Source: Amphiscolops sp. MND2022
Lineage: Eukaryota
DNA length: 60,000 bases
Reading direction: 5' to 3'
Assembly (NCBI GenBank): GCA_964187785.1
Contig: OZ076409.1
Span: 19,036,001 to 19,096,000 of the forward strand
Below the pieces are notes generated by a model, which was not told where the DNA came from, did no database searches, and saw only the letters and a program-made list of their open reading frames with translations. The position numbers and the translations under genes were made by a program. Of the stretch, positions 18,391-55,519 are shown in pieces. Each line of letters begins with the position of its first letter. The stretch's first letter is position 1.

Positions 18391-19327
18391 GTTTAAGTTC
18401 CACTCTGATGTTAGTTTCTATGCTAGCCATTGACTTTCTTGGAAAGATGCTGACTGCTCTGTTTTCGAATTTCCGGAATTTCTGAAGAAAAAATGCAATC
18501 ATTTTACGTTCCTTTGCAAGTATTCATTAACACTGGATCGAAAGCATGACTTCTCTTTTCCTCGTCTAAAAGTAATAATAATTGTTACAAAATACTGTAG
18601 TTGCAAATTACTTAATAATAAATTTTTATAGACTTTATGCTATCGATCAATAACACTGAAATAGGTTATTTATTTTGTTACCACCAACATTATATCACAT
18701 GAACGAGTGATTTTCTTGTTTCAGCTGAAACTTCGCAGGTAAGAGGATTTTTTAAATGTCAAAATTTGAGAAGAAAACCAATGGCGACGTTTATTCAGTT
18801 AGAGTCTCTACAGTAGTCAGTTTTTTTGTCGAGATCGAGTAGGGAAGTTTCGGAGTGGTCGTAAGTTCGTAGTTTCACATTCTGCTCGCTTTTTCTTAAT
18901 GACTCAGAATGTCTGAATTGGTTAGCTGTCAACAATGAGTCACTGTTGGGTTTGTTCACGGTTTGATAAGAGAAGCTTTTTAAGAAGACACCTTTCTGCT
19001 AGCTTATATCAGTCAAATGATGAATTCAGTGCAATAATTATAAATTACGGTTCAATAGAATTTTCATCAGTCCATTATCCAACTTTTGGTTCAAAACCTC
19101 ATAAAATAACTATAAAGAGAATAGATTTTTAATCACCATTTTCACCATGTATTAATCTTTTTCAGCAAGCAAATGATTCTTTGTTTCAGTGAGTTGCCAT
19201 AAAATTCATTTCCAAACATCCAAAAACATTCAGAAAACACATTTACTTCTCTTTTAGCTAAAAAAAATCATAAACGTTCAACCTTAGATTTGACAGCTTA
19301 CTACATCTAAGTAGGAACAGTAGTAAT

Positions 19328-22300
19328 AGCAGGGGGGAGGGGGGGGTTAAATGATGTTTTGGGCTCCCAACCGAAATTATTCTAAGTCAGAAACTTATCT
19401 CACGTTTTGGGCTCCCAAACCGAAAATTTTATAAGTCAGAAAGGTCAAAGATCATTTTGTTTGAACTGTCAAATTTTGTATATTTTATCACTCGGCTGTC
19501 AAATTTCATTTACTATACGTCAAAATTGACTTTTCTGACTTAAAATAATCTCGACTCGGGAGCCCAAAAAGTGCAATGAGAATCTGAGAATAATTTCGGC
19601 CAAAGAGCTGTAAACATGCACGAACTTGCAGCTATAAGTCCGTGATCATTGAATCTTAGCTACTTTAGACCTATAGTATTGTACTATATATTGAATGATA
19701 GATCGAATATAAGACCTAGACGACCGTGTTCAATGGATCTCAGCTACTTTAGACCTACAGTATGAGCTGTATTTTGAAAGATAGATGAAATACTAATCCT
19801 ACACGACCGTGTTCAACGAATCTTAGCTACTTTACACCTATAGTATTGAACTGTATACTGGAAAAAAGATGGAAAATAAATCATACGACCGTTTTCATCG
19901 AATCTTAGCTATTTGACCTATAGTATGGTTTTGTCTGCTGAAAGATAGATCGAACAAAGGTCCTATACGGCTCTGTTCATTGATTCTTAGCTACTTTACA
20001 CCTATAGTATGGAACTGTATATTGAAAAAAATGACCAAATATAAGTCATACGACCGTGTTCATCGAATCGTAGCTCCTTTAGAAATATAGTATGGTACTG
20101 TATATTGAAAAATAGATCGAATATAAGTCCAAAACTACCGTGTTCATCGAATCTTAGCTACTTTATGAATATAGTATGGTAATGTATAATGAAAGATAGA
20201 TCGAATATGAGTCCTATACGACCGTGTTCATTGATTCTTAGCTACTTTACACCAATAATATGGTACTGTATATTGAAAAATAGATCGAACAAAGGTCTTA
20301 TACGCATGTGTTCATTGAATCTCAGCTACTTTACTCCTATAGTATGGTACTGTATATGAAAGATAGATCAATTACAGTTCATAAAGTTCCTATACGTCTG
20401 TGTTCATTGAATCTTAGCTACTTTAGACCAATCGTATTGTACTGTATATGGAAAAATAAATCGAATATTAGTCCTATCCGAAAGTGTTCATCGAATCTTA
20501 GCTACTTTAGACTTTTTGTATGGATCTGTATTTTGAGAAATAGATCGGATATAAGTCCAAGACTATCGTGTTCGTCGAATCTTAGCTACTTTAGAAATAT
20601 AGCACAAAGTTCTTTAGAATATAGTATATAGTTCTATATAAAGTGTATGGAAATATAGAAATAAAGCTTCTATAAAATAGCTAAGATTCGATGAACACGG
20701 TCGTATAGGACTTATATTCGATCTATCTTTCAATATGCATTACTATAGTAATGTATATTAGAAGATAGATTGAATATAAGTCATTTACGGCTGTGTTCAT
20801 TGGATCTTAGCTATTTTATTCCTATAGTATGGTACTGTATATTGTAAGATAGATCAAATAAAAAACCTATAAGACCGTGTTGATTGAATCTTGGCTACTT
20901 GACCTATAGTATGGTTTTGTATGTTGAAAGATAAATCAAATATTTGTCCTATACGATAGTGTTCATCGAATCTCACCTACTTCAGACTGCATAAAACGGA
21001 ACTGTATTTTGAACAATACATCGAGTATAAGTCCAATAGTACCGTGTTCATCGATTCTTAGCTACTTTCGACCTACAATACGGTACTTTATTTTGAAAAG
21101 TAGATCAAAAAAAGGTCCTATACGCATGTGGTCATTGAATCTCAGCAGGGGGGAGGGGGGGGGGTTAAATGATGTTTTGGGCTCCCAACCGAAATTATTC
21201 TAAGTCAGAAACTTATCTCACGTTTTGGGCTCCCAAACCGAAAATTTTATAAGTCAGAAAGGTCAAAGATCATTTTGTTTGAACTGTCAAATTTTGTATA
21301 TTTTATCACTCGGCTGTCAAATTTCATTTACTATACGTCAAAATTGACTTTTCTGACTTAAAATAATCTCGACTCGGGAGCCCAAAAAGTGCAATGAGAA
21401 TCTGAGAATAATTTCGGCCAAAGAGCTGTAAACATGCACGAACTTGCAGCTATAAGTCCGTGATCATTGAATCTTAGCTACTTTAGACCTATAGTATTGT
21501 ACTATATATTGAATGATAGATCGAATATAAGACCTAGACGACCGTGTTCAATGGATCTCAGCTACTTTAGACCTACAGTATGAGCTGTATTTTGAAAGAT
21601 AGATGAAATACTAATCCTACACGACCGTGTTCAACGAATCTTAGCTACTTTACACCTATAGTATTGAACTGTATACTGGAAAAAAGATGGAAAATAAATC
21701 ATACGACCGTTTTCATCGAATCTTAGCTATTTGACCTATAGTATGGTTTTGTCTGCTGAAAGATAGATCGAACAAAGGTCCTATACGGCTCTGTTCATTG
21801 ATTCTTAGCTACTTTACACCTATAGTATGGAACTGTATATTGAAAAAAATGACCAAATATAAGTCATACGACCGTGTTCATCGAATCGTAGCTCCTTTAG
21901 AAATATAGTATGGTACTGTATATTGAAAAATAGATCGAATATAAGTCCAAAACTACCGTGTTCATCGAATCTTAGCTACTTTATGAATATAGTATGGTAA
22001 TGTATAATGAAAGAAAGATCGAATATGAGTCCTATACGACCGTGTTCATTGATTCTTAGCTACTTTACACCAATAATATGGTACTGTATATTGAAAAATA
22101 GATCGAACAAAGGTCTTATACGCATGTGTTCATTGAATCTCAGCTACTTTACTCCTATAGTATGGTACTGTATATGAAAGATAGATCAATTATAGTTCAT
22201 AAAGTTCCTATACGTCTGTGTTCATTGAATCTTAGCTACTTTAGACCAATCGTATTGTACTGTATATGGAAAAATAAATCGAATATTAGTCCTATCCGAA

Positions 22301-22964
22301 AGTGTTCATCGAATCTTAGCTACTTTAGACTTTTTGTATGGATCTGTATTTTGAGAAATAGATCGGATATAAGTCCAAGACTATCGTGTTCGTCGAATCT
22401 TAGCTACTTTAGAAATATAGCACAAAGTTCTTTAGAATATAGTATATAGTTCTATTTAAAGTGTATGGAAATATAGAAATAAAGCTTCTATAAAATAGCT
22501 AAGATTCGATGAACACGGTCGTATAGGACTTATATTCGATCTATCTTTCAATATGCATTACTATAGTAATGTATATTAGAAGATAGATTGAATATAAGTC
22601 ATATACGGCTGTGTTCATTGGATCTTAGCTATTTTATTCCTATAGTATGGTACTGTATATTGTAAGATAGATCAAATAAAAAACCTATAAGACCGTGTTG
22701 ATTGAATCTTGGCTACTTGACCTATAGTATGGTTTTGTATGTTGAAAGATAAATCAAATATTTGTCCTATACGATAGTGTTCATCGAATCTCACCTACTT
22801 CAGACTGCATAAAACGGAACTGTATTTTGAACAATACATCGAGTATAAGTCCAATAGTACCATGTTCATCGATTCTTAGCTACTTTCGACCTACAATACG
22901 GTACTTTATTTTGAAAAGTAGATCAAAAAAAGGTCCTATACGCATGTGGTCATTGAATCTCAGC
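19328..22964. repeat. ~1.82-kb tandem duplication of TIR plus satellite
   Basis: 19328-21143 repeats at 21144-22964; ORFs 20308/22126 offset 1818; AGC microhomology at the junction. Confidence 0.95.
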
Positions 22965-23130
22965 TACTTTAGTCCTATCGTATTGTACTGTATATGGAAA
23001 GATAAATCGAATATAAACCGTATACGAAAATGTTCATCGAATCTTAGGTACTTTAGACTTATTGTTTGGAACTGTATAATGAAAAATAGATCGAATATAA
23101 GTCCAATACGAACGTGTTCATCGACACTTA
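19640..23130 (+). repeat. 84-bp satellite array, left arm (interrupted by a duplicated terminal segment at ~21144-21460)
   Basis: Monomer ~TTGAAAGATAGATCGAATATAAGTCCTATACGACCGTGTTCATCGAATCTTAGCTACTTTAGACCTATAGTATGGTACTGTATA. Confidence 0.95.
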
Positions 23131-23534
23131 GCTTGATATAAACAAACAAAAAATATGTTGACATCTCAAACGAGCTTCCAATCCAAGTTGAACTTAGAAG
23201 TTTCCAATTTCCCTTATAGTGGTCAATATCGCCACAGACTCAACTGAAATCTGAGCGAGTTGATTCAACGATGTCTGGAGATATAAACAAACTGAAACTA
23301 TCTTGACAACTCAAACGAACTTCCCATTCAAGTTGAACATTGAAGTTTCCATTCATACTGATAGTCAATATCAACAACGAATCAACTTAACATTTCTATG
23401 TTGTCTATTGAAAGTGAAACAAACGGATCTAGGAATTGATAAAACCAAACCTGATTCAGATAAAAACCGTTTCTACTATCATAACACTTTTTGACGATAA
23501 ACGCTGTTGGACGAAGTTCTGCAACAAACACGCA

Positions 23535-24129
23535 ATGGACAAATCCGGATCGATTGAAGCAATTATTGGCCCTATGTTTAGCGGGAAAACGACTGAGCTT
23601 CTCAGACGGGTCAAACGTTATAGTCATCGTCAAAAATCCTGGGTCGTGGTCAAATACGCAGGTGATTTGAGATATAGCTCCACGCAGGTTGTTTCTCACG
23701 ACGGGCAATCACTTGAAGCAATTGGGACATTTACACTAGATGCAGTTTACGAAAAAATGTCGCAATAAGACGTTTTAGGTAAGTTGTGGTACCTTACTTT
23801 TCCATTCTGTTTATCTGGACAATTGCTCAGAAATCATTTCAGGCATTGACGAAGAACAATGTTTCGATGACATTGTTGAAATGTTTGACCAATAGGGTAT
23901 GGCAGGGAAAAATGTCATCGTCGCGGCACTGATTGGTAATCACCGCAGAGAGAGCTTCAAAAAAACTCTCAATCTCCTACCCAAAGTTGAAACAATTAAG
24001 ATGTTGACTGCTACTTGTGGTATGTGTTCGGAAGAGAAAAGTTGTTTCACAAGGCATCAATCATTATTGGAACCAGAAGAAACAACAATTGGTGGTAAAA
24101 ACGAATTTATCACACTGTGCCGCAAGTGA
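23535..24129 (+). pseudogene. TK1: Thymidine kinase (TK1/type II) pseudogene, two exons (23535-23778, 23843-24129)
   Basis: GPMFSGKTTELLRR, KYAGDLRY, SHD, G|IDEEQCF, GKNVIVAAL, LTATCGMC, IGG..LCRK; 64-bp GT-AG intron; premature stops at 23766 and 23893. Confidence 0.92.
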
Positions 24130-26846
24130 TGGAAACTCGAAGAACAAAACTAATGAAGAAATTGAGCAGTTCAACCTCGGTCACAAACACTTAATTCGCC
24201 ACTAAATAACTCTGATTTTCATGTGTAACCGGTGAAGGTAAAAGATTTAGTTTCAAACTTTTCTAATCAGAGAACACATAGTGCAAAATAGTCCAGTGAA
24301 CAATTTCATGATTTAGGAGCTTGAGTTATTTATAGGTTGTGGATGTTCAACTGGTGAGGTGCACTAATTTGTTTTTTGTGCTATAGAGGTTTCTTTCAAC
24401 ACCAATTTCAATCATTGCTTTGAAAGTTAAAAAATTAAAAATAATTGTGTCAATTCTGTGAATAATTCTTTTTTCGGTCTCTTGTGCTGCACAAGCAAGC
24501 AGTGAATCTTTCAAAAACCCGCGAGAATGTTTTTTGACAAAAACTTGCTCATTTTCATCTCCTTGAACTGTCAGCAAGTTTCAGATAACTTCCTGCGCAT
24601 ACACCAGTCTCCATTTTCAACAAAACAAATCAAATTAGGTTTTGGAACGAGTGATTAAGAGTCGTCCGATTGTGCTGCCACGGGAACGTCTGATTTGATA
24701 TCCAACGTTCCCTTGTTTAAATTTTCTGTTTGCAGAAAACTTCGCCGTTACAATACTTGGGCGAAAAGGTAAAAATTTCCTCGTTGAAAACAGCCTAATT
24801 TTCCAGGTATTTTCCCCCACAAATTATCGAATTTTTTTATTTCAAACATTGTGCTTCTTGTGTTGAAATTGAGTGTCCGGTAACGCTGAGACGAAAACTT
24901 CAATTAAAGCAGGCAGTGTGGTCTGAGTTATTAGTCCTGCAGCTAGATACCATACTAATCTAAACTGCATCGAGCGATCAAATCACTGGGGTCACACTAC
25001 TGTTTTGATGGGACAATCGAAGACTAGTTGCTCATCTCGTGAAGTCCTACATAAACTGCTTCGGGTTTGATTCATCACTGACGGATTGCCGGCTCACTCA
25101 TTGATTTCAAAGGGACTTCTTCATCGAAATGAGGCTCCTGAGGCAACTGGCCAAAAACCAAATGACGTCGAAAAAACTGTGACTTTCACGAAGCAGAGGT
25201 ATTTTTAAGACTTCAAGTTGTTTTTTACAGCTGTTCAGTATTCACATTTCGGTGCCAATCGTACCGTACCAACTTAACTCCAAGCAGGAAATGGTAAAAT
25301 TCGATAATTTGTGGGGAATAATTTTGATACAAATAGAATCCGTTCTGGAGTCGGGCTTTGGAAAAGTAATTGTAAGTTGCTTTTGACTTAGAGTTTTCTA
25401 GAGTACACGTTCAGAAAGTTTTTCTTGAAACTGTTATGAAGTTGTTCCAACACTGCCGACGTCAACTGAACATACAAGGTTTGCGAAGGTTCATGAAAAC
25501 TAATTTTGCGCCAGGATTCACCAAATTCATCTCGCGATTCATAATGAAAGTGCTAGCAAGAACAACATGTTCTTGGTCACTCTGTAGGACTAATAATTCA
25601 ATTTTCTTCAGTGGATTTCCAAACCAGTATTCAGATGTTGCAAGTCAGATTCCTTCTTCGTATTCAGTCATACACACCAACAACAGCAGCAGCAATTCAA
25701 GTTCTTCTCAGAAGAACAGACACAGCAATCCCAGTTTAGCCACTGTTCTGATACTGTGCGATCGCTGTATACGAGTCAGATGAATTCGTATAAAACTGCA
25801 AGATCCAACTCTGACCACTGAGACTATTTACGTTCAAGTCTCTTTCTTGAGCTTTCAAAACTCAATTTTCATTCAATGAGTCGAGATGCTACATTTTCAT
25901 ATCATCTTTTCTTCAAAACTCAGGCTCCCTGCGCTCATCCGGGAACAAATACACGTTCTGCTTCCATCGGCGCATAGCCTTCTCCCTGCTGCTCGTATTG
26001 GAGTTGGTAAAATTGGTAGCTTGATTGCAGTTCTCTAGGTATGTTTCTTTGCGTAGTGAAATCAGTGACTCAATGAACAGTTTGTTGCTATGCATTTTTT
26101 GTTGATTGTCTGACACCAACCAAACAACAATCAGACTTGGCTCAGTCACGATGCTCGCAGCAAATTACCAGGAAAACCAGGCTGTATTTGGGCAATGAAA
26201 TTTCCACCAATTCGCCCAAGTAATGTAATTGCCAAGTTTTCTGAAAACCGAAAATTTAAACAAGGGAACGTCGGATATCAAATCAGACGTTCCCGTGGCA
26301 GCACATTCGGACCCTTAATCACCCGTTTCAAAACTCTACTTGATTTGATTAGTTGAAAATGGAAACAGTGTATGCGCCGGAAGTTTTCTAAAAATTGCTG
26401 ACAGTTCAAAGAGATAAAAATGAGCAAGTTTTTGTCAAAGAAACATCATCGCGAGTTTTTATAAGGTTCACTGCTTGCTTGTGCAGCACAAAAGACCGAA
26501 AAAAGAATTATTCGCAGAGTTGACACAAATATCGTTATTTTTTAAACTTTCAAAGCAATGAAGGAAATTGGTGTTGAAAGAAAACTCTATAGCGCAGAAA
26601 AAGAATTAGTGCACCTCACCAGTTGAACATCCACAACCAATATTTAGCTCAAGCTCCCAAGTCCTGAAATTGTTCACTGGAATATTTTGCATTATGTGTT
26701 CTCTGATTACAAAAGTTTGAAATACAATGTTTTACTTTCACGGGTTACACATGAAAATCAGAGTTTTTTAGTTGCTAATTAAGTGTTTCTGGTCTAGGTT
26801 GAAATGCTCAATTTCTTCATTAGTTTTGTTCTTCGAGTTTCCAGCA

Positions 26847-27438
26847 CTAGCAGCACAGTGTGATGAATTCGTTTTCACCACCAATTTTTATTTCTTCTGG
26901 TTCCACTAAAGTTCGATGCCTTGTGAAACAACTTTTCTCTTCCGAACACATACCACAAATAGCGGTCAACATCTTAATTGATTCCACTTTGTGTAGGAGA
27001 TTGTTAATTTTTTTGAAGCCCTCTCTGCTGTGATTACCAATCAGTGCCGCGACGACAAAAATTTGCCAAGCCATAGCCAATTGGTCAAACATTTCAACAA
27101 TGTCATCAAAAAATTGTTCTTCGTCAATGCCTGAAACGATTTCTGAGCAATTGTTCCAATAAAAAGAATGGAAAAGCAAGGTAGCACATTTTACCTGCAA
27201 CGTCATTTTGCGACATTTTTTCGTGACCTGCATCCAGTGTCAATGTCTCAATTGCTTCAAGTGATTGCCCGTCGTGAGAAATATCCTGCGTGGGGCTATA
27301 TCTCAAGTCACCTGTGTATTTGACCACGACGCAGGATTTTTGACGATGAGTATAACGTTAGACCCGTCTGAGAAGCTCAGTCGTTTTCCCGCTAAACAAA
27401 GGGCCAATAATTGCTTCAATCGATCCGGATTTGTTTAT
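26847..27438 (-). pseudogene. TK1: Second, inverted thymidine kinase pseudogene
   Basis: Mirror copy with the same intron; start ATG>ATA, a TAA after LLRRV and a small deletion near 27065. Confidence 0.9.
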
Positions 27439-27764
27439 TGCGTGTTCGTTGCAGAACTTCGTCCAACAGCGTTTATCGTCAGAAGTGTTATGATAAAAGA
27501 ACGGTTTTTATTTGAGTCAGGTTTGGTTTTATCAATTCCGAGATACGTTTGTTTCACTTCCAATAGACAACATAGAAGTGTTAAGTTGATTCGTTGTTGA
27601 TATTGACTATCAGTATGAATGGAAACTTCAATGTTCAACTTCAATGGGAAGTTCGTTTGAGTTGTCAAGGTAGTTTCAGTTTGTTTATATCTCCAGACAT
27701 CGTTGAATCAACTCGCTCATGTTTCAGTTGATTCTGTGGCGATATTGACCACTATTAGGACATT

Positions 27765-30700
27765 ACATTACATCTTTCATTATACATTACTATACTATAT
27801 TCCTAAAGTAGCTAAGATTCGATGATCACGGCCGTATGACTTAAATTGGATTTTTTTTTCAATATACAGTTCCATACTATGGGTGTAAAGTAGCTAAGAT
27901 TTGATGAACACGGTCGTATATGACTTATATTCGATCTATCTTTTAATATACTTTACTATACTATATTTCTAAAGTAGCTAAGATTTGTTGAAAACGGTCG
28001 TATGACTTATATTCGATCCTTTTTTCAATATAATGTACCATACTAAAGGTCTAAAGTAGCTAACATTTAATGAACACGGTCGTATAGGACTTATGTTTGA
28101 TCTATCTTTCAATATACAGTACCATATTATCGTTGTTGATATTGACAATCAGTATGAATGGAAACTTCAATGTTCAACTTCAATGGGAAGTTCGTTTGGG
28201 TTGTCGAGGTAGTTTCAGTTTGTTTATATCTCCAGACATCGTTGAATCAACTCGCTCATGTATCAGTTGATTCTGTGGCAATATTGACAACTATTAGGAC
28301 AAATTAGAAACTTCTAAGTTCAACTTGGATTGGAAGGTCGTTTGAGTTGTCAACATAGTTTCAGTTTGTTTATATCACCAGACCATTCGATCTATCTTTC
28401 AATGTACGGTACCATATCATAGGTCTAAAGTAGCTAAGAATCGATGAACACGGTCGTATAGGACTAAAATTCGTTTTATCTCTCAACATACAAAACCACA
28501 CTATGGGTCAAGTAGCTAAGATTTAATTAACATGGTCTTGTCGGTTTTATATTCGTTCTATCTCTCAATATACAGTACCATACGATAAGACTAAAGTAGC
28601 TAAGATTCAATGAACACAGCCGTATAGGACTTATATTCAATCTATCTTTCAATATACATTTCTATACTAAATAACTAAAGTAGCTAGGATTCGGTGAACT
28701 CGATAGTATTGGACTTTTATTCGATCTCTTTTTCAATATACAGTTCCATTCTATAAAGTAGCTAAGATTCGATGAACACTCTCGTATAGGGCTTAAATTT
28801 GATCTATCTTTCAATATACAGTAAAATATTATAGGTCTAAAGTAGCTAAGACTCAATTACCACGATCGTATAGGTTTTATATTCGATCAGTCTTTCAATA
28901 TACAGTTCCAAACTAGAGGTCTAAAGTAGCTAAGATTTAGCGAGCACGGTCGTATAAGACTTTTGTTTGATCTATCTTTCAAAATTCAGTACCGTAGTAT
29001 AGGTCTAAAGTAGCAAAGATGCGATGAACAAGGTCGTATAGGACTTAAATTCGATCTTTTTTTCAATATACATTACTACATTATAGGTCTAAAGTAGCTA
29101 CGATTTAATGATTACGGTCTTATAGGAATTATGCTTGATCTATCTTTCATTATACGGTACCATATTATAGGTCTAAAGTAGCTAAGATTTGATGAACACG
29201 GTGGTATATGACTTATATTTGATCTATCTTTCATTATACATTACTATACTATATTTCTAAAGTAGCTAAGATTTGATGAACACGGTGGTATATGACTTAT
29301 ATTTGATCTATCTTTCATTATACAATTCTATACTATATTCCTAAAGTAGCTAAGATTCGATGATCACGGCCGTATGACTTAAATTGGATTTTTTTTTCAA
29401 TATACAGTTCCATACTATGGGTGTAAAGTAGCTATACGATCTATCTTTTAATATACTTTACTATACTATATTTCAAAAGTAGCTAAGATTTGTTGAAAAC
29501 GGTCGTATGACTTATATTCGATCATTTGTTTAATATAATGTACCATACTAAAGGTCTAAAGTAGCTAACATTTAATGAACACGGTCGTATAGGACTTATG
29601 TTTGATCTATCTTTCAATATACAGTACCATATTATCGTTGTTGATATTGACAATCAATATGAATGGAAACTTCAATGTTCAACTTCAATGGGAAGTTCGT
29701 TTGAGTTGTCAAAGTAGTTTCAGTTTGTTTATATCTCCAGACATCGTTGAATCAACTCGCTCATGTTTCAGTTGATTCTGTGGCGATATTGACCACTATT
29801 AGGACAAATTAGAAACTTCTAAGTTCAACATGGATTGGAAGGTCGTTTGAGTTGTCAACATAGTTTCAGTTTGTTTTTATCACCAGACCATTCGATCTAT
29901 CTTTCAATGTACGGTACCATATCATAGGTCTAAAGTAGCTAAGAATCGATGAACACGGTCGTATAGGACTAAAATTCGTTTTATCTCTCAACATACAAAA
30001 CCACACTATGGGTCAAGTAGCTAAAATTTAATCAACATGGTCTTGTCGGTTTTATATTCGTTCTTTCTCTCAATATACAGTACCATACGATAAGACTAAA
30101 GTAGCTAAGATTCAATGAACACAGTCGTATAGGACTTACATTCAATCTATCTTTCAATATACATTTCTATACTAAATTACTAAAGTAGCTAGGATTCGGT
30201 GTATTCGATAGTATTGGACTTTTATTCAATCTCTTTTTCAATATACAGTTCCATTCTATAAAGTAGCTAAGTTTCGATGAACACTCTCGTATAGGGCTTA
30301 AATTCGATCTATCTTTCAATATACAGTAAAATATTATAGGTCTAAAGTAGCTAAGACCCAATTACCACGATCGTATAGGTTTTATATTCGATCAGTCTTT
30401 CAATATACAGTTCCAAACTAGAGGTCTAAAGTAGCTAAGATTTAACGAGCACGGTCGTATAAGACTTTCGTTTGATCTATCTTTCAAAATTCAGTACCGT
30501 AGTATAGGTCTAAAGTAGCAAAGATGCGATGAACACGGTCGTATAGGACTTATATTCGATCTTTTTTTCAATATACATTACTACATTATAGGTCTAAAGT
30601 AGCTACGATTTAATGATTACGGTCTTATAGGAATTATGCTTGATCTATCTTTCATTATACGGTACCATATTATAGGTCTAAAGTAGCTAAGATTTGATGA

Positions 30701-42900: not shown

Positions 42901-44201
42901 GTCTCTCATCATGGACAACTTCTTCACTGCCAAACTAGAGCTGTTCCAGCGTCTGGTCAGCGATTGTGAGTATTTCCTATTTCGTGGTAGTCACTCTGGT
43001 CAGTTGTCCCTTTAAGGGTTTTTATCTTTGCATTTCAGACGTCACCAGTTTCACTATCAATCTAGCTCAAAGACGGGACGCTTCCTTTTTCCTGTGCGGG
43101 GAAGTATGCAGGTACATCAATCGTCTCTGTTTTCGTGTTTTCCGACCCGACACTGTGCCATTAGAGAATGCTTGGTTTCTGTTAATGGACTTCCAGCTTG
43201 GCCAAGGCACACTTATGGACGATGAAGACTTCCTGGTGCGACTTAAGATAGCCAGCAGAGTTGCCACTGCCTGTAACCTGAAAGCAGCCGGGCTCCACTT
43301 TAACAAAAAGTCCAGTACGGCAGCCATTGCCAAAACAGCTGAGGTGGCGAAGTCAGATTTTGTGTCCAGCGCCAAGGACTTTATCAAATTTCTGTTGGCA
43401 GGGGTCCTCCAACATACAGAGTTCACTTCCGACCTTATCAAGGGATTAGCCGCGTTCGACCCCTTTATTTTGTTCCAAAGACCTATGGATGTTGCCTTAC
43501 GTCATTTCGACTATCTGTATTCGACGTTCCAGCTGCGTTCCTGGGTCTCTGCATCAAGTGAGTCGGCTTGCCGAGATGAATATGTGGCCTTGTTGGACTA
43601 TCTCCGTGCTAATCATTCTACTGAATTCGTTTCCACCAGTCATCCTCCTGATCTCATTGACTTTTTTATGGGCTTAGATTTCCTTCAAACCCAAGACCAC
43701 ATTTGTTACTTGTTCAAGCTGAGCTGTTTGTGTATAACATCTGTTAGCCCCGAGTATCCCCCAGTGTCTTTTGGAAAGATTGACACTAGAGGACTTCAGT
43801 CTCGTTTGGCAGACGTTATCTTGCCCTGCCAAAGTTACTTGACATCAGTGCCTGATTCCCTGCTTGCCTGTTGTACTGAGTCCCGCCTTGAGAAGTTCTG
43901 TCATTTGTCCACTTCGTTTGGACAATCAGGCTTTGCCGCCGATTATGACCCTTGGACCTTCGTAGACGGTTTCGGCCGTTCTGCTATTTACAAGACTCTT
44001 GTGGCTTCTCATCGTTCTGTTCTCGCTGGGTCGGACTTCCATTTTAGGAGTCCCACTCTTCCTGATGTTTCTTCCGTGCAAGACGCACCCGCTGTCAAGC
44101 TGCCTAGTGAAAACAAGCGTAGACGAATGAAAAGGAGTTGTTCCCGTAGTAGATCCTCATCTGTCATTGAAGAGTCTCCTGCTGGTGGCTCTAAAACTTA
44201 A
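39974..44201 (+). pseudogene. Spliced antisense gene inside the Gypsy element: disordered N-terminus, BED-like zinc finger, hAT-transposase-like body; exons ~39974-41988, 42086-42540, 42637-42965, 43039-44201
   Basis: VWCHMCKKNFSI..EILRHHRTEKH; phase-compatible GTAAGT/GTAAGT/GTGAGT...AG introns; frameshifts near 41922, 42160 and 42785; AATAAA near 44387. Confidence 0.7.
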
Positions 44202-44447
44202 TTGTACATATGTATTTATGTACTTACAGGCTGTAAACTTTGCTGATTTTCTGTTTGTAATATTTGTTTCATCTTGTTGTTCTTGATTTCCTGATCCCGT
44301 ATTTATTTTCCTTGCAAGGGATCGTCCAAATGTTCCGTTATTTATTCAGAAAATACTGCCATATGGGACTGATTAAAAAGAGAAAAAATAAAAGAGAAAA
44401 GAGCATAACAGTTCAGGGTTAATTTCCTGAACCTAATTTAATTTTCT

Positions 44448-47400
44448 CTAGTAACTGTAGTCTTCTGAGTAGTTTGGGTTGGGATTAGGCCTGAGATTAT
44501 ATTTCCCTCCTCTAGGACTCAGACTTTCATTTCTAGCATCGTTTTCAGATATTTCGGGCACGATAATATCATCCCCCCTTTTCGGAGAATTTTGTGCATC
44601 GCTTTCGGTTCTAAAATTTTCATCGAGGAAAATTTCTTTGTCTTTTAGGCTGTCTGCCTTATCCGGCAAGGGTTTTTGATGGCTTTTTGGGGAATTGGCC
44701 GGATTCGGCCAATCAGGTTCTTCATTTCTAGACTGTTCACTAGCTTCGTTTCTTGTAGTGACGTCATCAATTAATCGTTCATTCCGGCTATGCGACGCAC
44801 GATCGGCAAAATTTGATTCATCACTCGTGATTACATAATCCTCTTCATTCTCGTGTGCGTCACTTGCATTCGGTTGTGCCGCATTCGGTTGTTCGCCATT
44901 CGGCACGCTAGTCGGAATAGGCTCGTTGTCTCGTGTAACTAGCTGCTCGCCAAAATCTGTTTCCCACGTTATGACGTATAGGTCATCTTGCGGAATGACA
45001 ATTTCTTCGTCTGGCTGCAGACGTTGTTCTCGGAAATTGTCCTCAAGCGGTTGATTGGGGACAAATTTTTTAAGACGGATCCGATGCAGAATTTGGGTCT
45101 TGTTCGTGTTAATCCGTCGTACTATATAGTTTTGATTTGGCAAGACTTTTTGGACTAAAAATGGTCCAACCCAACGGTAATCACGGAATGGAATTTTTGA
45201 TCCTTGATTATCCGCTTTGGGCTGTAAGACAAAACAGTATTCGTTCTCCTTCAGTGGAGCGGCTTTTGCTTTGCGGTCGTAATATTCTTTGTACTTGATA
45301 TACGACTGCATAATGTTCTGCTTTGTTTTGTCAATCAAGATTTTTGTCCGGTTTTGGATTTCTTCTGCAAATTCGGTTGTGGGGTTGATCTGCTCATTTG
45401 GGTTATTTCCAAGTTTGTGATCCAAGATATTAAATGGAATTCTTCCATGAAATACTCTCGTCGGTTCACAACCGATGCTGGCGTGATAACTAGTATTATG
45501 ATTCAGTACTGCTATTGGCAAGTATTTGTGCCACTGTCGGCGATATTCCCCACATGCCATTTTAAGATTTGTTTTCAATGAGGCATGAGTTCGCTCCAGT
45601 TTCCCAATTGTCTGCAGGTGTTGTGTCGTTGCACATTTGAGTGTGATGCCCAAAATCTGCGTAACCTCCGCGATAATTGTAGAAGTAAATGCAGTACCTT
45701 TATCAGTGATAAGAGTTGTTGGTAGATATGAGTGTTTAGTTATGATGTCAATGAGCGCTTTTGCTACATTGATCGCTGATGCGTCCGTGAGGGGATAGGC
45801 GAACAAATATCTGGAGAATACATCAATTGCTGTTAAGACGTTTTCATACCCACCACTTGGGGGAAGATTCGGCAATAGGTCTATTTGCATGGCGTCTTCA
45901 GGTCCGAGGTCCCATTCGGGCAAGTTGAGTAGCTCAGGTGTGATCGTTGCGTTAGGGACTCTTTTGTCTCTGGCACATTGTTCGCACCCTTCTACCCACT
46001 TTTTGACGTGTTTAGCCATGCTAGGGTAGTAATACCTCTGTCGAATTTCCTGCAGCATTTTTGAAATCCCAGGATGTTTATGCGCTGTCCCGTGAAGAGA
46101 TTGGAGCAATTCCTGGAGTAAATGTTGCGGGAGTAAAATTTGATGCTATTTAACGTTCCCTGTTTCATCGAAATATTGCCTTGTCAGGATTTCATCCTTT
46201 AGTACAATTCGATCCAGATTGTTTGCGTAATGTCTATATCGGGCATCCTGGTGCAGTAGATTTTCTGAATACTCTTCATGAAGCAGTTTTGCTTTCAATT
46301 GTTGTAGTACCGCATCTTTGGATTGCTCGATAATGATGTGGTTCGTTTTCCTCAATCGGACTTGTGTATCGGGGTGTTGCTTGACCAGATTTGTTGACAG
46401 AGTTTGTATAGTAACAGTGGGCTCATCAGTTGCTGGATTTTTCCTGATTGCTTCTTTTCTTGCACAAAACTGTTCTTCTGTCTCATCGTCGTCATTGGTG
46501 TAGAAGATTTCTTCGTCTGGCTGCAGACGTTGTTCTCGGAAATTGTCCTCAAGCGGTTGATTGGGGACAAATTTTTTAAGACGGATCCGATGCAGAATTT
46601 GGGTCTTGTTCGTGTTAATCCGTCGTACTATATAGTTATGATTTGGCAAGACTTTTTGGACTAAAAATGGTCCAACCCAACGGTAATCACGGAATGGAAT
46701 TTTTGATCCTTGATTATCCGCTTTGGGCTGTAAGACAAAACAGTATTCGTTCTCCTTTAGTGGAGCGGCTTTTGCTTTGCGGTCGTAATATTCTTTGTGC
46801 TTGATATACGACTGCATAATGTTCTGCTTTGTTTTGTCAATCAAGATTTTTGTCCGGTTTTGATTTCTTCTGCAAATTCGGTTGTGGGGTTGATCTGCTC
46901 ATTTGGGTTATTTCAAAGTTTGTGATCCAAGATATTAAATGGAATTCTTCCATGAAATACTCTCGTCGGTTCACAACCAATGCTGGCGTGATAACTAGTA
47001 TTATGATTCAGTACTGCTATTGGCAAGTATTTGTGCCACTGTCGGCGATATTCCCCACATGCCATTTTAAGATTTGTTTTCAATGAGGCATGAGTTCGCT
47101 CCAGTTTCCCAATTGTCTGCAGGTGTTGTGTCGTTGCACATTTGAGTGTGATGCCCAAAATCTGCGTAACCTCCGCGATAATTGTAGAAGTAAATGCAGT
47201 ACCTTTATCAGTGATAAGAGTTGTTGGTAGATATGAGTGTTTAGTCATGATGTCAATGAGCGCTTTTGCTACATTGATCGCTGATGCGTCCGTGAGGGGA
47301 TAGGCGAACAAATATCTGGAGAATACATCAATTGCTGTTAAGACGTTTTCATACCCACCACTTGGGGGAAGATTCGGCAATAGGTCTATTTGCATGGCGT

Positions 47401-50400
47401 CTTCAGGTCCGAGGTCCCATTCGGGCAAGTTGAGTAGCTCAGGTGTGATCGTTGCGTTAGGGACTCTTTTGTCTCTGGCACATTGTTCGCACCCTTCTAC
47501 CCACTTTTTGACGTGTTTAGCCATGCTAGGGTAGTAATACCTCTGTCGAATTTCCTGCAGCATTTTTGAAATCCCAGGATGTTTATGCGCTGTCCCGTGA
47601 AGAGATTGGAGCAATTCCTGGAGTAAATGTTGCGGGAGTAAAATTTGATGCTATTTAACGTTCCCTGTTTCATCGAAATATTGCCTTGTCAGGATTTCGT
47701 CCTTTAGTACAATTCGATCCAGATTGTTTGCGTAATGTCTATATCGGGCATCCTGGTGCAGTAGATTTTCTGAATACTCTTCATGAAGCAGTTTTGCTTT
47801 CAATTGTTGTAGTACCGCATCTTTGGATTGCTCGATAATGATCTGGTTCGTTTTCCTCAATCGGACTTGTATATCGGGGTGTTGCTTGACCAGATTTGTT
47901 GACAGAGTTTGTATAGTAACAGTGGGCTCATCAGTTGCTGGATTTTTCCTGATTGCTTCTTTTCTTGCCCAAAACTGTTCTTATGTCTCATCGTCGTCAT
48001 TGGTGTAGAAGATTTGTTCTTCTTGCGACACCCCTGCGGATTGGACATTGATTTCGATTGGTAGTGTTTGTACGTCTTCACGAATTTTCATCACCAATTT
48101 GTCCTTCGGATCTGCTTCTAATCGGGACAAATAGTCGGCAGCTGTATTTTGTGCCCCTGGGATGTGTGCTATGACGAAATTGAATTGAATGACGTAATCA
48201 CACGCGTTCCACAGGGCTGGGGGTATTATTTTTGTTTGAAAAAATCTCGTGACAGCTTTGTTGTCTGTAAGGATGATTGCCGGTTTCGGCGCACCCCAAA
48301 ATATATGTCCGAATTCTTTGAATGCAAAATAAATTGCAAGGAATTCCTTGGCATAAATTGACATCTTTATCTGCGCTGGGGTGAAAGTTTTTGATCCATA
48401 TGCGACTGGTGCATACGATTTCGTGAGTGACGTAAATTTCTGGCTTGGGTCGTCTTCGATTAAGACCGCGTATCCGGCTGCACCAAAACTTGCATCAGTC
48501 ATTAGTGCTATTTGTTTGTTCGGAATGGGTTGTTGTAGGGCCAAGTCGCAACATTTGTCTAGCGCCCTATTGATTTCTTCAAATTGCTGGACTAATTCCT
48601 TCGATACTAGGACCTTTTCGTCACTCTTCAGCATCTTGTAGAATGGAGCAAGGCGTTCTGAAAGTCTTGGGACATAATTCCTGTAGTAGTTTAGGAATCC
48701 CAAATAGCGCTGTAAAGCCTTTTTCGACTTCGGGAATTTAGTCTTTTCCAGAAAGTTTTGCACATTCTGTTTCTGGGGTTTGACGCCTTGTGGGGTAATA
48801 GTCCGTCCGAGAAAATCGATTTCTTTTGCACCGAAATGACATTTGTGCATTGTTAACTTAAGGCCTGCTTCCTGAATGCATTTGAATGTAGCTCTCAGGT
48901 TCGTCATGAGGTGGTCAACATCATTGGCTGCGATGCCGATATCGTCCACATACTGGGCACACTGATCCGCTTTGATGACTTTGTCGAGGTATTCCCTCAT
49001 GAAACTCGAGAATGCGGATAGTGACCGGCTAAGGCCTTGTGCCAAACGTCTGTAGGCGAATGTGCGACTGGCAAAATTGAAAGCCAGCATTTCGATTGAG
49101 CGTTGGTCAGCCATTGGTAGGCAGTGGTATGGCTGCGAACAGTCTAATTTACAGAACAGTTTTTTGCCTGCCAAGTGTTGGGCTGCATCAACTAGTGTAC
49201 TGACGGGATGATTGTTGTTGATATAATCATCCGAGATGAGGTTGTTGATTTTTCTCAAGTCAACCAAGAGTCGGAGTTTCCCGTTCGGTTTCTTTTGTGC
49301 AAATATTGGACTCGCATATTTCGAGAACGGTAGGGTGGTGATGATGCCATATTTGTGTAACATGGCTAATTCGACTAGGATGTCCTCCTTCAGATTGATA
49401 GGAGCTGGAAGGTTTTGACTATAGGCTGGGGAATCGTCCTTAGGTGTCAGTTTCACTTTGAAATCCTCGTTCATGCCTATATCAAATCGGTGTCGTGCAA
49501 AGATGTCATGGAATTCCACTAACAATTCCTCAATTTTCTCCTTCTCTTCAGGAGTAAGGGTGGAATCTTTCCAGTCAAAGTTTTCCAAGAATTTTGCACG
49601 CGATTCTGCATCTGTGGTGGGGTCGAGTGTCTCCAGGTCCTGTAAGGCCTGTAACTCGCGTAGGATTCGTTTTTGTATAGGTGTGTGTTCCTCAGGATTT
49701 CCAGGGTTTTCTGGAGTTGGGAACCAATAATTTTCGGAGTTTTGTGGATTTCTATTGGTTTTGATGAGACTGCTGACATAATGGGCTGCTTGCTCCTGGT
49801 CATTCTGCAAAAGGTGCCAGGTTGATGCCGGATCTACCGGTTTGACATACTTCATCTGTTCTGGCGTCATGACAGAGAAATTGGCAATATGTAGTCCTTT
49901 TTTGAGTTTATAAGGGTGGTCTGTGAAATTGCTCACTGGTATCAATATATTGCCGTCATTCAGAGTGACCAAGGCTGGGCAGAATGTGATGTCGCCTTCT
50001 TCATGTAGAAGGTCGCTCGGTTGCAAAATCCCAGTGACAGCATTTCCAGGGTATAGTAAGGAATTAGTCCGTATTAGGACTCTGTCATTTGGCGGAATGG
50101 GTATTTCAGCAGGGTTGAGGATTGGTTCAAGTACGTTTGAGTACTTATGGTCAGCTGTTTTGAGCTGCATTGAAAAGAACGGGAAATTCAAAATTCCTTG
50201 TCTCATGTCCAGTACTGTATGATTTCGTTGAAGGAACATTAGTCCAATGATCGGTCCTGTTAGATTCTCCATTACTATGAAGATTTCATGGAACTCAATG
50301 TCACCAACCTCAAATTTGAGCTCTATGGTACACTTGGGAGTTTCTAATTGGCCATTTGCGACCATTATTTGAAAATTCGGAGGCGGACCTTCCCGGATAA

Positions 50401-51160
50401 ATGATTGTGGTGATAGAAGTCGGATTTTCCGGAGGTCCATTTCAGGGATTGCACTGGAAAGTGCTCCAGTGTCAATTAGGCCGTCTATGGTTAATTCCCC
50501 GAAGTCCATCGGGAAATACAGCATTCTCTTCTTGCATTTGAGGTTGATACTGGTCGAAAGTGGTATACAGTCTGGTTCACCCTCTTTGGTAATGAGGATA
50601 TTTTGGAATTGTTTCTCGTCCAATAGTGATTGTGGAATTGGTTCTGTACTAGCTTTGTTAGTTTCGGTTCCCAAAGGGTTCGGGAATACTGGATGGTTAG
50701 TACCATCATTCATTTGCCAGTTTTCGATTAGTGCTCTGGTTTTCTTGTTATGGGTTATCGGAGGGTTTTCGTGGACTGTGGTTTGGTAATGGGCTATATC
50801 ATCCAGGACGTATTGGAATTGTAGGAGGTCCTGGTTGTAAATCTCAATGTCCCAATAGGGATCTCTGCCATAATCTGGGTCGATGTACGTTGGATTGTAA
50901 TCGTCGATCAAGGGAATGGGCCTGAATCGGGTTGTAAAGGTGGTTGTGTAGTCAGGATCCCAAACAGGAATTGGTTTTTGGAACAGATGGGTATTATTAT
51001 AGGTAATAACGATGGCCTTCTCCATCTGTTGCTGCCAGACAACAGAGGGGTAAGCCATCAATTTTTGTTGATTTTCATGGAAAGTTTTTGTTGGAGGATC
51101 CGACCTGATGTACTGACGGACGGATATTAGTTGATTGTATTGGAGTCGTGGCGAAGTTAG
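44448..51160 (-). pseudogene. pol: pol polyprotein (aspartic protease, RT, RNase H, integrase), with stops and an internal duplication
   Basis: LIDTGA; LRLLVDLRKIN; YVDD; TDAS..KE..TDN..ADYLSR; H-x5-H..CEQC; integrase IDLL..TDKG..ERTH; GPF motif. Stops at 47981, 47651, 46913 and 46146. Confidence 0.96.
45001..48015. repeat. 1506-bp tandem duplication of the integrase region
   Basis: 45001-46510 repeats at 46507-48015; ATTT microhomology. Confidence 0.95.
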
Positions 51161-51166
51161 TTTTTT
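51160..51166 (-). promoter_or_regulatory. -1 ribosomal frameshift heptamer A AAA AAC at the gag/pol junction
   Basis: TCA AAA AAC TAA ends gag; the -1 frame is open and in frame with pol (51160-51061 = 99 nt). Confidence 0.75.
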
Positions 51167-52271
51167 GACTCATCTTTGTTTGATGAGGATTGGGTATTGG
51201 AGGACATTGGTTTGCTGTGGAATTTAGGTGTCTTAGAGTCAGGGTCAGTGTCTGAAGAGTCTTCAGGCCTGGTACGTTTGGGTTTCAAGTGAGCACCTGC
51301 TCCCTGCCAACATCTCTCCTCTGGACGGTTTTTCTTGCCACAAGTCCCGCACTTAGGGTACGTTTTCTTTTCTGTCGATTTGCCTTGTTAGGCATCTTTC
51401 TCTTTTTTCTTTTTGAGTTTTTCACAGTCTTTGACCATGTGGTCTTTTTCCTTGCAGTAGTTGCAAGTTTTGTCCGACATTTGCCCAGTGGAAAGAGGGG
51501 TTTTAGTCTTAGAAGATGAGGAGGTCATTGTTGCCATGGGTAGGTCGTCTGACTCCTCAAGGGCGTTAAGCTCTAATTCCCTCTCTAAATGAGCAACGAT
51601 TTCGTCGTATGAGCCATTTTCTAATCTGGCCATGTTGACTGATCGCTTGAGTTTTGGAGGCAGTTTTGCGTACAAAAGACTGTCAATCATTTTTTGTGCA
51701 TGGTCGCCAAATGCTTTTTCTGCCCCTTGATTGAGTTCCTCAAGGAAATCCGGTAACTTCGTCGTATTAGGATCGAAGACCAAGCGGTGCCATTTATGCT
51801 TGGCAGTCGCTTGTGACTCGGGTTTGACGTATTTTCGTCGGAAAATGACTAAGACGTCTTCAAGAGTCTGTCGGTTGGTCGAGTTAATATTTCTGAAAGT
51901 CTGAAGAGCATTCTTCCTCAGGAGCGAATGAAAATGATTAATTTTCATCTGTTCAGTCATTTCTGGTTGCATCTTGATCATGGTATGAAACAGATCTTCG
52001 AACAGCTCAAATTTCTCACTTTTGCCATCAAAGGTCATGGTGTTTGAGTTGACCGGGCGTATGGTGAGTTGTTGGGCTGCTGGTCGATTCTGCATATTTG
52101 TCAAGACGTCTGCCAGTCTGGTAATTGGATCAGGGTCAACAACCGTGGCCGGTTTTTCTTGTGCTGGGATCGTTGTGTCAAGGTTGATGTCCTCGTAGGA
52201 CTGATCAAGATGGTTTCGTGATAGAATCCGTCCCGTGAGAAACTCAGGAATTTGATTGGGGGATTCGTTGT

Positions 52272-52283
52272 CTCCTGTCACCA
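52272..52283 (-). promoter_or_regulatory. Primer-binding site TGGTGACAGGAG
   Basis: Directly follows the CA of the 5' LTR; one mismatch from a tRNA-Leu-type PBS (TGGTGTCAGGAG). Confidence 0.65.
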
Positions 52284-54024
52284 TGTCGTAAGCATTAGAA
52301 CCAACTATGCCATCATTTTGGCGGTTACAATTAAGCTTACTAGCTGAACTGTCTTTAGGGTTAATATTTTGCAGTCCTTCGGAGTTCACTTCCGGTCTCT
52401 CGGACGGAATGTTCCATCTATTCTGAGTCGAGTGTCCCGATCCGGCACTTAAAGCGGATTGAATCTGAGGCAATATCTGATTGCTAATTGCATCACTAAT
52501 TGCCCTTTGAATCTGGGAATTGACACTACACATCATATCATCTAACTCCCTTGACAGTCTCGAGTTCAACTCGCTTGACAACTTGTTAATCTCAGCACTA
52601 GAATTACCTCCAGTTGAAATCCGGCCGCATTCGGCATTATCACTAGGATCTATGTCGCTTGTGGCTGAGTACCTATTTTCATCATTATTCTCTAATTCAT
52701 CTGCAGAAGCACTATCAGGCCTTCTGCCAAAATTGCTACTAACATTTTCATCTCTCTCATTTCTGTTGAAATGGTTTTCTCCTAACATGATATCGAGGTT
52801 TTCTATGTCAGATAGCATCTCTATCACTCTTGACTTCCTAGCCTTCTTTTGTCTTCTCGTAGTAGGCATTAAGAATTTGAGGTTGAATAATTTATTGGTG
52901 GTCTAGGTTTTGCAATCTATAAGAGCGAAACAAACTGAGTTTGGGTATCATAAGGAAACTTGTGTCCACCTCTCGGAACGGGTGGGTATATATACTCCCG
53001 AGAGGATGGAATTTACGTATTTTGGTACAATTCCCGCAATTTACAAATTCCTCAAGTCATAAGATTAAGGCACAACACTGTTTAGAATGAGGCGGTTAGC
53101 ACCTTATCAAAGATCCTTAGGAATTCATACTTGCTAGGGTCACGAAGTTATATCTTTCCATTTGAAAACATCAACAATATTACTACATATCATCATAGTT
53201 GGGTAGCATCGGCAACAAACATCAAACAAATAACATAGCACAACTATCTAAGGAATGTTCATCACGGAATGATGTCACGTGCCTGCTCAAGTCGGCCGTT
53301 GCAGCAAATAAGTAGCTTTAGCATAAATAATGAAACAAAATACAACATGTCCTAAATCGGCCATTGGACTTTAATTCATTCAGGGTGAATGGTCTAGTTA
53401 GTCCAAAAGATTGGTACTAATAATTGGGCTGGAATAGGGATACTAATTATTTCAAACAACGTAAAAGCACTAATTATTAACTTCAGATGTAAATAGAAGA
53501 CTTACATGACTACTAAACACTACAACATTATTAATACAATAGGTTGCAACAATGATCAAAGAAATGGCCTATTCCGGCCATCTGCCTAGTATTCCAACTA
53601 ATTAATGCACCATTAAGACAAACGGCCATATCCGGCCAATTGATTAGAACAGCATTGCATCATGAAATACTCGAATATGATTGGTTGGTAATTTATGCTC
53701 AAGTGACGCTCTCGGACTGAAAGCTACGTACACTCGAACTCGTTTCCTTTAAGCCATTTAGTAGCTTGCATTGAACTGTAATTTACATTGAACATTGTTA
53801 TTTTACAACTTGCAACTTCACTTGTCTAATGTATTATTAGCAGACTAATACACATTGTACCATAATGAAAAATGTAGTTAACCTAAACAAACGTAAATAT
53901 TGAGAGTAAGTTTTCAGAGTTTAGCGTAAACCTGTTTAAAACGTGGGTAGGGTTCCGGGTATAACCTCTTGACTGGTTGCTGAAGTCGTTATTAGAGTGC
54001 CATCACAGGCGGCAGCCTGCGACA
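52284..54024 (-). repeat. 5' LTR
   Basis: TG...CA ends, followed by the PBS. Confidence 0.93.
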
Positions 54025-55519
54025 ATAGTACTATACTATAGGTCTAAAGTAGCTAAGATCCAATGATCACGGTCGTATAGCTGCAAGTTCGTGCATGTTT
54101 ACAGCTCTTTGGCCGAAATTATTCTCAGATTCTTATTGCACTTTTTCGGCTCCCGAGTCGAGATTATTCTAAGTCGGAAAAGTATTTTGACGTATAGTAA
54201 ATACAATTTGACAGCCGAGTGATAAAATATACAAAATTTGGCAGTTCAAACAAAATGATCTTGGACCTTTCTGTTTTATAAAATTTTCGGTTTGGGCGCC
54301 CAAAACGTGAGATAGGTTTCTGACTTAGAATAATTTCGGTTGGGAGCCGAAAACATCATTTAACCCCCCCTGCTATTACTACTAGGAACAACCAGAAGAA
54401 TTCTGTTTAGGATCATGCTCTATGTGGTATAGTCTGAATAATGACAAAGTTCACGGACTTAATTAACCATTAACCGGTACTAGATAACTGCTATGATGTA
54501 CATGAAGAAATTTAACGTTGATACAGTTGAGTTGAAAATGAAATATGTTGAATCAATTGACGTCTTTCCTTTATTAGCTTCTAATTTAGGCATGGCGCTA
54601 TTAGCATTATCTTAATCTGACCCTACGGCAGTTTTGAATCGACGAAAAATCATCTTCAGTTTGCAAATTCACGAACACTAGTTATTAGTGATGTAGATGA
54701 GGAGTTTACCACAGCAGACACCGGAATATGGTGACCAGAGTTCTTGCTTTACAGAGACCTAACACAGCATATCGCTATTAACAGCTTGTCGCAAAAAGAA
54801 ACGAAACTACCGGATGCAATAGTATGGGAAATGAGAGAAAGAAATCCACGCAATGCCCAAACAACTATCAAACGATCCAATACAACGGTATGACAGTAAA
54901 CAACTAATAGAGCCGTGCAGTGACAGACAAATGCCTACAACAGAACAATCCATATTTTTTTTTCGAATTACATCCAGGTTGAAAACCCGGAAAAGACTTG
55001 GGTCACATTCAGTGAAAAATCGATCATTCTGAAAAATCAATTTCATGAACAACCAAAAGTAATGGAATACATTCAACTATTGTTACTTCCACAAAGTTGA
55101 CAAAAATTTCGTTCATTTCCATAATAGCAATTTCGTAACGAGTACTTCCAAAATCTCCTCTTTGGCAAAACCTAGGTAAAATAAAACAAAAATAGGGAAC
55201 GGCCCATGTCGGAGCCTCGTTCAAGACACCTTTGGGAGATTGTTATCAGTACAGTGCTAGAAAACACCTGAAGGGACACCCATGAGATCAAAAACGTTTT
55301 TTCAACTGCAAACAACAAAAAACTTTTCAGACTTTATTATTTTTTCGACGAATTTTATTCCGGGAAAAAACTCATAGTGTAGCAAAGGAGCTTTTAGCTC
55401 GCTAAATGTTTTTTTCAGGGCAAAAATATTTATGAAAGTGAAGGGGGTACTGTCACAGTCCGCTCCCGGACTGGATTGAATTAAAAACAAACTAAAACTA
55501 ATCTATGTCACCGCTTCGC

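Follow-up and report, generated by a model that had tools for sequence, protein, structure and literature searches.

A palindromic, non-autonomous Maverick derivative with satellite DNA and a thymidine kinase gene, and its many relatives, in the genome of Amphiscolops sp. MND2022

A 60,000-nucleotide stretch of the genome of Amphiscolops sp. MND2022 (OZ076409.1, here contig C1, 19036001-19096000; hereafter the window, in whose numbering positions are given) contains a giant element at 19319-54383, the arms of which mirror each other and carry arrays of an 84-bp satellite and a thymidine kinase (TK) gene. The element belongs to a many-copy non-autonomous derivative of Maverick (Polinton) elements, recognised by shared ends and by dispersed copies with independent target-site duplications (TSDs). 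Comparison with its relatives indicates that it very probably took its present form by fold-back doubling.

Results

Ends and layout of the window element

The element begins with AGTAGT and ends with ACTACT, and AGGAAC flanks it on both sides as an exact 6-bp TSD (the chance of a 6-bp match is ~3.5e-4), just where a first interpretation made without database searches (the sequence-only reading) had placed these features. The terminal inverted repeats (TIRs), estimated at ~330 bp in that reading, measure 313 bp on the left and 303 bp on the right and are 92.7% identical. Between the inner arms (23212-24813 and 26162-27759), both of which contain Pfam TK matches, identity is 89.5% over 1.6 kb. 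The satellite arrays lie in opposite orientation in the two arms and are highly unequal (3.5 versus 8.8 kb), and a Gypsy element sits ~56 bp inward of the right TIR, so the symmetry of the window element is one of the order of its parts and not of their lengths. The mirror described earlier as running inward through satellite, TK and ~0.7 kb beyond is right as an order of parts, with arms 87-93% identical.

Outside the Gypsy, tblastn with the ten open reading frames (ORFs) of an autonomous Maverick from the same genome gave no match at an E-value of 0.01. Pfam searches of the long ORFs of the element found TK and Gypsy domains only, with neither pPolB nor a retroviral-like integrase outside the Gypsy, and tblastn detected no ATPase, protease or capsid gene in the window element or in one palindromic relative. 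These searches bear out the initial impression that no Maverick core ORF is recognisable outside the Gypsy. The window element is thus not an autonomous Maverick: it has the end and TSD features of one and lacks the gene features.

A dispersed family with independent insertions

A genome search with the window TIR returned 465 candidates, of which 40 were scored. Among 27 elements examined, three lacked one or both ends, five carried genes and one had a foreign centre, leaving 18 non-autonomous copies, which are related to each other and partly hand-picked, with end pairs chosen mostly 10-18 kb apart. Paired-TIR copies with distinct TSDs had been set as the test of family status, and such copies exist: an exact 6-bp TSD flanks 13 of the 18, all different, and 15 of the 18 once one extra terminal AGT is allowed. 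In copies L041 and L153, the left end has the extra AGT inside an otherwise exact TSD; a protein-primed polymerase that initiates by slide-back would be expected to make additions of this kind. The TSDs show a target preference: of 30 strand-symmetrised sites (15 TSDs from satellite-bearing copies, including the window element), 23 have T as the third base and A as the fourth. Miniature inverted-repeat transposable elements are short, hundreds of bases in length, and this class was ruled out by lengths of 10.8-17.4 kb.

A 19-base word of the satellite occurs 641 times in forward and 640 times in reverse orientation in the genome. Its 92 matches on contig C1 form 19 small clusters, and all 13 clusters with matches on both strands run plus then minus, the order also seen in the window element; on this contig, the 84-bp satellite seems to reside in these elements. 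Satellite-bearing loci number roughly 200-270 (~265 by rough scaling from C1).

Gene-carrying Mavericks that share the ends

Whether gene-carrying Mavericks of the same genome share the termini had also been named beforehand as a test, and two families (here called helpers) do. Family A (14.3 kb) and family B (14.2 kb) have 6-bp TSDs and encode pPolB, an integrase, an A32-type ATPase and an adenovirus-type protease, and three copies of family A match its reference copy at 99.0-99.6% identity. In many copies of the TK-carrying family, both ends are 88-93% identical to the left end of B over ~300 bp, past B's own ~200-bp TIR. The window subfamily combines a B-type inner TIR (92% over 83-313) with an A-type outer tip (86-91% over the first ~120 bp), and the switch between them falls in a block common to families A and B. 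Judged by these alignments, both arms derive from one end of B, and the tip varies between subfamilies; tip exchange may have allowed derivatives to follow another helper. The shared ends and the TSD length suggest that the family is mobilised in trans by Maverick polymerase and integrase. The helpers likely also have a capsid gene, as indicated by the position of a candidate and by an atlas lead to double jelly-roll proteins that is weak by its own measure.

At least six gene-carrying Maverick lineages (A-F) occur in the genome, with pPolB regions ~63-70% identical and some of them mosaic; one mosaic Maverick resembles A (84%) in its structural half alone. Immediately upstream of pPolB is a C2H2 zinc-finger ORF, which in some copies shares an open frame with pPolB (~1,280 aa). 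Among viral contigs, 23 pattern matches were obtained and none was confirmed.

Other derivatives differ in their contents. The pair L031+L032 (C2:43170868-43183405) has the TIRs closest to those of the window element, an exact TSD and satellite at both ends, and a 9.3-kb centre with unrelated, retroelement-looking ORFs (two tested, no Pfam match), for a total of 12.5 kb. At L161+L162 (C13:17.35 Mb), L153+L154 and L177+L178, there are arrays of a centre-derived ~337-bp repeat and of a ~166-bp repeat related to the family A subterminal region. Some derivatives join arms from different subfamilies.

Origin of the mirror

Three relatives with A-type ends carry one TK each and are not palindromic. 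In one of these unfolded relatives, the palindromic arm aligns at 69-80% with the first ~3.0 kb of the 4.6-kb centre, and just beyond the fold point of the palindromic family the same relative holds a remnant of a Maverick protease (42 aa, E-value 3e-8). A TK-less sister class holds similar Maverick gene remnants. Given the unfolded relative and these remnants, the account that fits the palindrome best is a head-to-head doubling of half of a deleted Maverick.

Among the listed TK matches, 22 of 69 loci hold convergent inverted pairs, and no locus holds a divergent one. The gap between the arms is 198-674 bp in other palindromic copies versus 1,348 bp in the window. The ~1.35-kb spacer that had been taken as the boundary of the mirror is not one, as in other copies the mirror continues through it; in the window, it is a leftover of deletion, made up of two segments that are normally mirrored and survive here on a single side each.

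An arm tree (37 arms) unites the two arms of one element in four of six elements (support 0.88-1.0) and groups arms by side in the two young ones. The own arms of these two young elements differ by 1.6-2.4%, and same-side arms of different copies by ~0.5%. From this grouping, we infer that the arms are equalised occasionally and not at every insertion. Our preferred mechanism is re-copying of the arms, which would proceed via a panhandle in strand-displacement replication.

Element length and packaging

The 18 copies have a median length of 12.9 kb, with a minimum at 75% of the 14.3-kb helper and a maximum at 122% of helper length. Pairing of A-type ends among the first 100 of 121 listed gave 41 pairs, of which 36 are 10-18.5 kb apart, three shorter and two longer; 19 of the 41 carry genes. 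Median non-repeat DNA is ~4.2 kb in TK-less and 5.8-7.0 kb in TK-bearing copies, and median totals are 12.6-13.5 kb. Non-repeat length differs between TK-less and TK-bearing copies (p=6e-5) and total length does not (p=0.79), and copies with more tandem DNA tend to have less non-tandem DNA (Spearman -0.48, p=0.044, n=18), with the caveat that p-values from related copies overstate the evidence.

These lengths fit a packaging limit and do not show one, and the proposal that packaging sets the length is a tentative one to which we give somewhat less than even chances. The sequence-only reading had based its packaging argument on a length of ~17.5 kb without the Gypsy. The figure is accurate (17,527 bp) and is an unsuitable basis for the argument, as the window copy grew after insertion and the helpers measure 14.2-14.3 kb. 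Its suggestion that the satellite acts as packaging stuffer is speculative, and the family sizes lend it indirect support.

An account that falls only just short of an even chance is that of a helper-dependent Maverick derivative in which length is independent of packaging: it would descend from a full-length element, with deletions offset by neutral satellite growth and the mirror kept by chromosomal gene conversion. A range of 10.8-17.4 kb reaching beyond helper size, the kilobase tandem duplications common in this genome both inside and outside the elements, and the lack of particle evidence would all sit comfortably with it. Less easily accommodated are the common median total of classes ~2 kb apart in their non-repeat part, the different ~337-bp array that other derivatives have made from centre sequence, and the scarcity of short derivatives (just 2 of 41 end pairs).

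Thymidine kinase cargo

All but one of the 30 best TK loci lie in element context, the other being an ordinary host gene (C12:58.94 Mb), and element TK loci number at least 69. The element TK is like cytosolic TK1 (PF00265) in scoring above the Pfam cut-off and in having a phase-1 intron at the same codon as host TK1; the common intron position suggests that a nuclear gene was captured as DNA. It is unlike host TK1 in sequence (42-61% identity by exon) and is without the apparent next host intron, and in a quick TK tree it forms a very long branch that the tree does not place. In protein databases, its close relatives (73-97%) are unnamed ENA records, and named animal and protist TK1 proteins match at ~40-45%.

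Both window copies are broken: in-frame stops interrupt the left one near the end of exon 1 and near the start of exon 2, and the right one lacks a start codon and has a stop within exon 1. TK is open in both exons with a GT-AG intron in 18 of the 31 copies examined, a sample biased toward intact copies in that 29 were the best scorers with a hidden Markov model. The pairwise ratio of nonsynonymous to synonymous substitution (dN/dS) is 0.47 in exon 1 and 0.31 in exon 2, and nonsynonymous distance (pN, 0.026-0.031) is less than half of the intron distance (0.069), which we regard as modest evidence of selection on TK. The open copy L088 matches PF00265 and keeps the P-loop, the DEGQF block and the four zinc-site cysteines; in the ALDG block, the element TK has Ile where the solved TK compared with it has Asp. 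We would put the prospects of TK being a working kinase cargo at about even.

The alternative that TK is inert luggage, captured once and now decaying, comes close to even prospects itself. It could explain the broken window copies, the failure of 13 of 31 copies in an open-frame test on a sample favouring intact ones, the equal success of TK-less satellite relatives (7 of 18), the very long branch and the Ile for Asp; the 18 open copies, the dN/dS and pN values and the retained P-loop, DEGQF block and zinc-site cysteines argue against it.

Later growth of the window copy and neighbouring sequence

The window copy is large because it gained a Gypsy element and duplications after insertion. The 17.5-kb Gypsy has 1,741-bp long terminal repeats (LTRs) that are 99.2% identical, encodes gag-like, protease, reverse transcriptase, RNase H and integrase domains, and has 5-bp flanks that agree at four of five bases. 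It is younger than the 7-13% divergence of the arms (0.8% between its LTRs), as are two satellite blocks of 1.5 kb (~2% mismatch) and a 1.8-kb tandem duplication (99.6% identical, 0.4% divergence), the source of a third TIR at 21144. Without the Gypsy, the 1.8-kb duplicate and the two satellite blocks, the copy measures ~12.7 kb (Table 1).

Beyond the Gypsy integrase, ~6 kb (38233-44447) contain opposite-strand ORFs of 673 and 420 aa and a 279-aa ORF, all without Pfam matches; a Cys/His cluster in the 673-aa ORF resembles a zinc finger. The junction between the integrase and this region is spanned by all 40 scored genomic matches (of 1,783 candidates), so the region is a regular part of a large Gypsy family.

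Tandem duplications of 1.5-7 kb that are 99.0-99.6% identical, with short junction overlaps and no gaps, lie at 271-7104, 19328-22964 and 45001-48026, and element ends are duplicated with the same TSD at C3:55.64-55.65 Mb and C6:63.84 Mb. Such frequent duplications reflect either a high real duplication rate or assembly duplications. Outside the element, a 250-aa frame at 10878-11630 (minus strand) has a phosphatidylinositol transfer protein domain (PF02121, E-value 2e-23).

Table 1. Parts of the window element, in window coordinates
Feature	Position	Strand	Remarks
Left TSD AGGAAC	19313-19318	+	
Left TIR	19319-19631	+	outer ~80-120 bp of family A type; positions 83-313 92% identical to family B left end
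Left-arm 84-bp satellite array	19632-23133	+	includes the duplicated block
Tandem duplicate of 19328-21146 (99.6%)	21144-22964	+	holds tipless third TIR; recent or assembly duplication
Conserved segment upstream of TK	23134-23534	+	~140-bp internal repeat
Left TK1-type gene	23535-24129	+	exon 1 23535-23778; exon 2 from 23843
Left TK intron	23779-23842	+	64 bp, GT-AG
Conserved non-coding segment downstream of TK, left arm	24131-24813	+	
Centre ('spacer')	24814-26161	none	leftovers of two segments of the mirror; in this copy each is missing from one arm
Mirror of segment downstream of TK	26162-26846	-	87%
Right TK copy	26847-27438	-	90% to left copy
Right-arm 84-bp satellite array	27772-36491	-	~1.5-kb blocks duplicated at ~2% mismatch
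Nested Gypsy-type LTR element	36492-54024	-	later insertion, outside the family
Outermost satellite unit remnant, right arm	54025-54080	-	
Right TIR	54081-54383	-	303 bp, 92.7% to left
Right TSD AGGAAC	54384-54389	+	

Discussion

The 14.2-14.3-kb Mavericks with shared ends likely supply the polymerase and integrase with which this family is copied and inserted. In this scenario, a Maverick would have lost nearly all of its genes and acquired 84-bp satellite arrays and an intron-bearing TK1, the state seen in the unfolded one-TK relatives. One half would then have been doubled head-to-head by fold-back in strand-displacement replication, and the half with Maverick remnants dropped. Occasional re-copying of one arm from the other, and exchange of the outer tip between families A and B, may have followed. 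Insertion of the window copy would have come later, followed by disruption of both TK frames and loss of part of the centre and, after that, by the arrival of the Gypsy and the tandem duplications. Throughout, total length would probably have been held near that of the helper, most plausibly by packaging, and this is the weakest step.

Several observations weigh against this scenario. Two of the 18 copies are without a matching TSD and one has a mismatch. The grouping of arms could also be explained by gene conversion after insertion. The capsid candidate of the helpers has no Pfam match, and its predicted fold is unusable (pLDDT, the predicted local distance difference test score, of 39). Six gene-carrying Maverick lineages, each represented by one copy, gave no match to the satellite, TK or centre, and a direct parent was not found among the 91 of 1,907 pPolB candidates that were scored, so that it may have been missed. 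As for length, end pairs only 286 and 2,021 bp apart occur, so small elements are rare and not absent, and tandem length taken alone does not differ between TK-less and TK-bearing classes (p=0.15). Finally, the family is known from the genome sequence and not from transposition, an empty site, free DNA or a particle.

Two further explanations fare much worse. An assembly artefact, in which a repeat-rich region was mis-joined in inverted orientation, is very improbable: the three 99.0-99.6% tandem duplications in the window could be assembly duplications, but identity between the arms is no more than 87-93%, an exact TSD flanks the element, no N occurs in the window, and the same layout recurs with other TSDs on many contigs. 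Still harder to credit is a foldback-type element of a cut-and-paste superfamily that merely resembles Mavericks, since its classic layout of long modular inverted arms of tandem repeats would speak for it but the reading is largely refuted by ends 88-93% identical over ~300 bp to gene-carrying Mavericks, 6-bp TSDs and Maverick gene remnants in relatives.

As a Maverick derivative, the family can be compared with several known systems. Vertebrate Mavericks have 5'-(AGT)2//(ACT)2-3' ends, TIRs and 6-bp TSDs, and intact elements have intronless ORFs (PMC8097293). The family is like autonomous Mavericks in its (AGT)2//(ACT)2 ends, TIRs and TSDs and in a length within the range of the Mavericks of the same genome. 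Unlike them, it has no pPolB, integrase, ATPase, protease or capsid ORF, and it has near-whole mirror arms, satellite arrays and an intron-bearing cargo. Butterfly polintons without polB carry LINE (long interspersed nuclear element) or Gypsy cargo and have ~2-kb gene-bearing TIRs (bioRxiv 10.1101/2025.02.07.637071). The family shares with them Maverick ends, the loss of polB, apparent continued mobility and foreign cargo; the butterfly elements as described there keep capsid and other core genes, whereas the family here keeps none and forms near-complete, satellite-padded palindromes. Transpovirons are linear, TIR-ended, capsid-less Polinton-group derivatives that use the particles of another element (PMC5499653). 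They resemble the family in being TIR-ended and capsid-less, with riding in particles a feature of transpovirons, and differ in their size of ~7 kb, their superfamily 1 (SF1) helicase, their dependence on mimiviruses and their lack of a palindrome.

A closer analogy in terms of length comes from gutted adenovirus vectors. Those below 75% of wild-type length rearrange upward, and half-size genomes are packaged as direct and inverted dimers (PMC4189039). Like these vectors as reported, the family keeps the ends alone and may carry non-coding stuffer, and its smallest copies (10.8 kb) are at 75% of 14.3 kb; unlike the vectors, which are engineered and of another virus family, the elements here are natural and integrated and some reach 122%, so this is an analogy and not membership. 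A more far-reaching reading, which we consider unlikely, is that these are natural helper-dependent satellite genomes of an endogenous Maverick virus that keep only the ends, restore a packageable length by inverted doubling and stuffer, switch helpers by swapping tips and carry a selected host-type TK that feeds helper DNA synthesis. In that reading, there would be a lower length limit of ~75% of the helper, as in gutted adenoviruses, and the length distribution would be a genomic footprint of Maverick particles.

Non-autonomous Mavericks are already known by name, and the '1N1' in Polinton-1N1_DR presumably means non-autonomous. Polinton-1N1_DR is named in PMC9341505. What is added here is an unfolded precursor, two kinds of tip, a TK cargo and a class-wise comparison of sizes. 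In titles and abstract openings of the literature on Mavericks and Polintons, we came across neither a TK borne by a Maverick nor a description of non-autonomous Mavericks that are palindromic and helper-sized; Repbase entries were outside this search, and a prior description is possible.

With young helpers, unfolded deletion derivatives and fold-back doubles in one genome, the route from a virus-like element to a giant palindrome can be read directly. The family bears on two standing questions about animal Mavericks, the existence of particles and the mode of replication; no particles have been observed in vertebrates (PMC8097293). If length is set by packaging, these abundant hitchhikers would offer a ready test of particle formation. 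The multiplication of a TK1 to at least 69 loci is, moreover, a route of gene amplification that gene-based annotation of transposable elements would miss.

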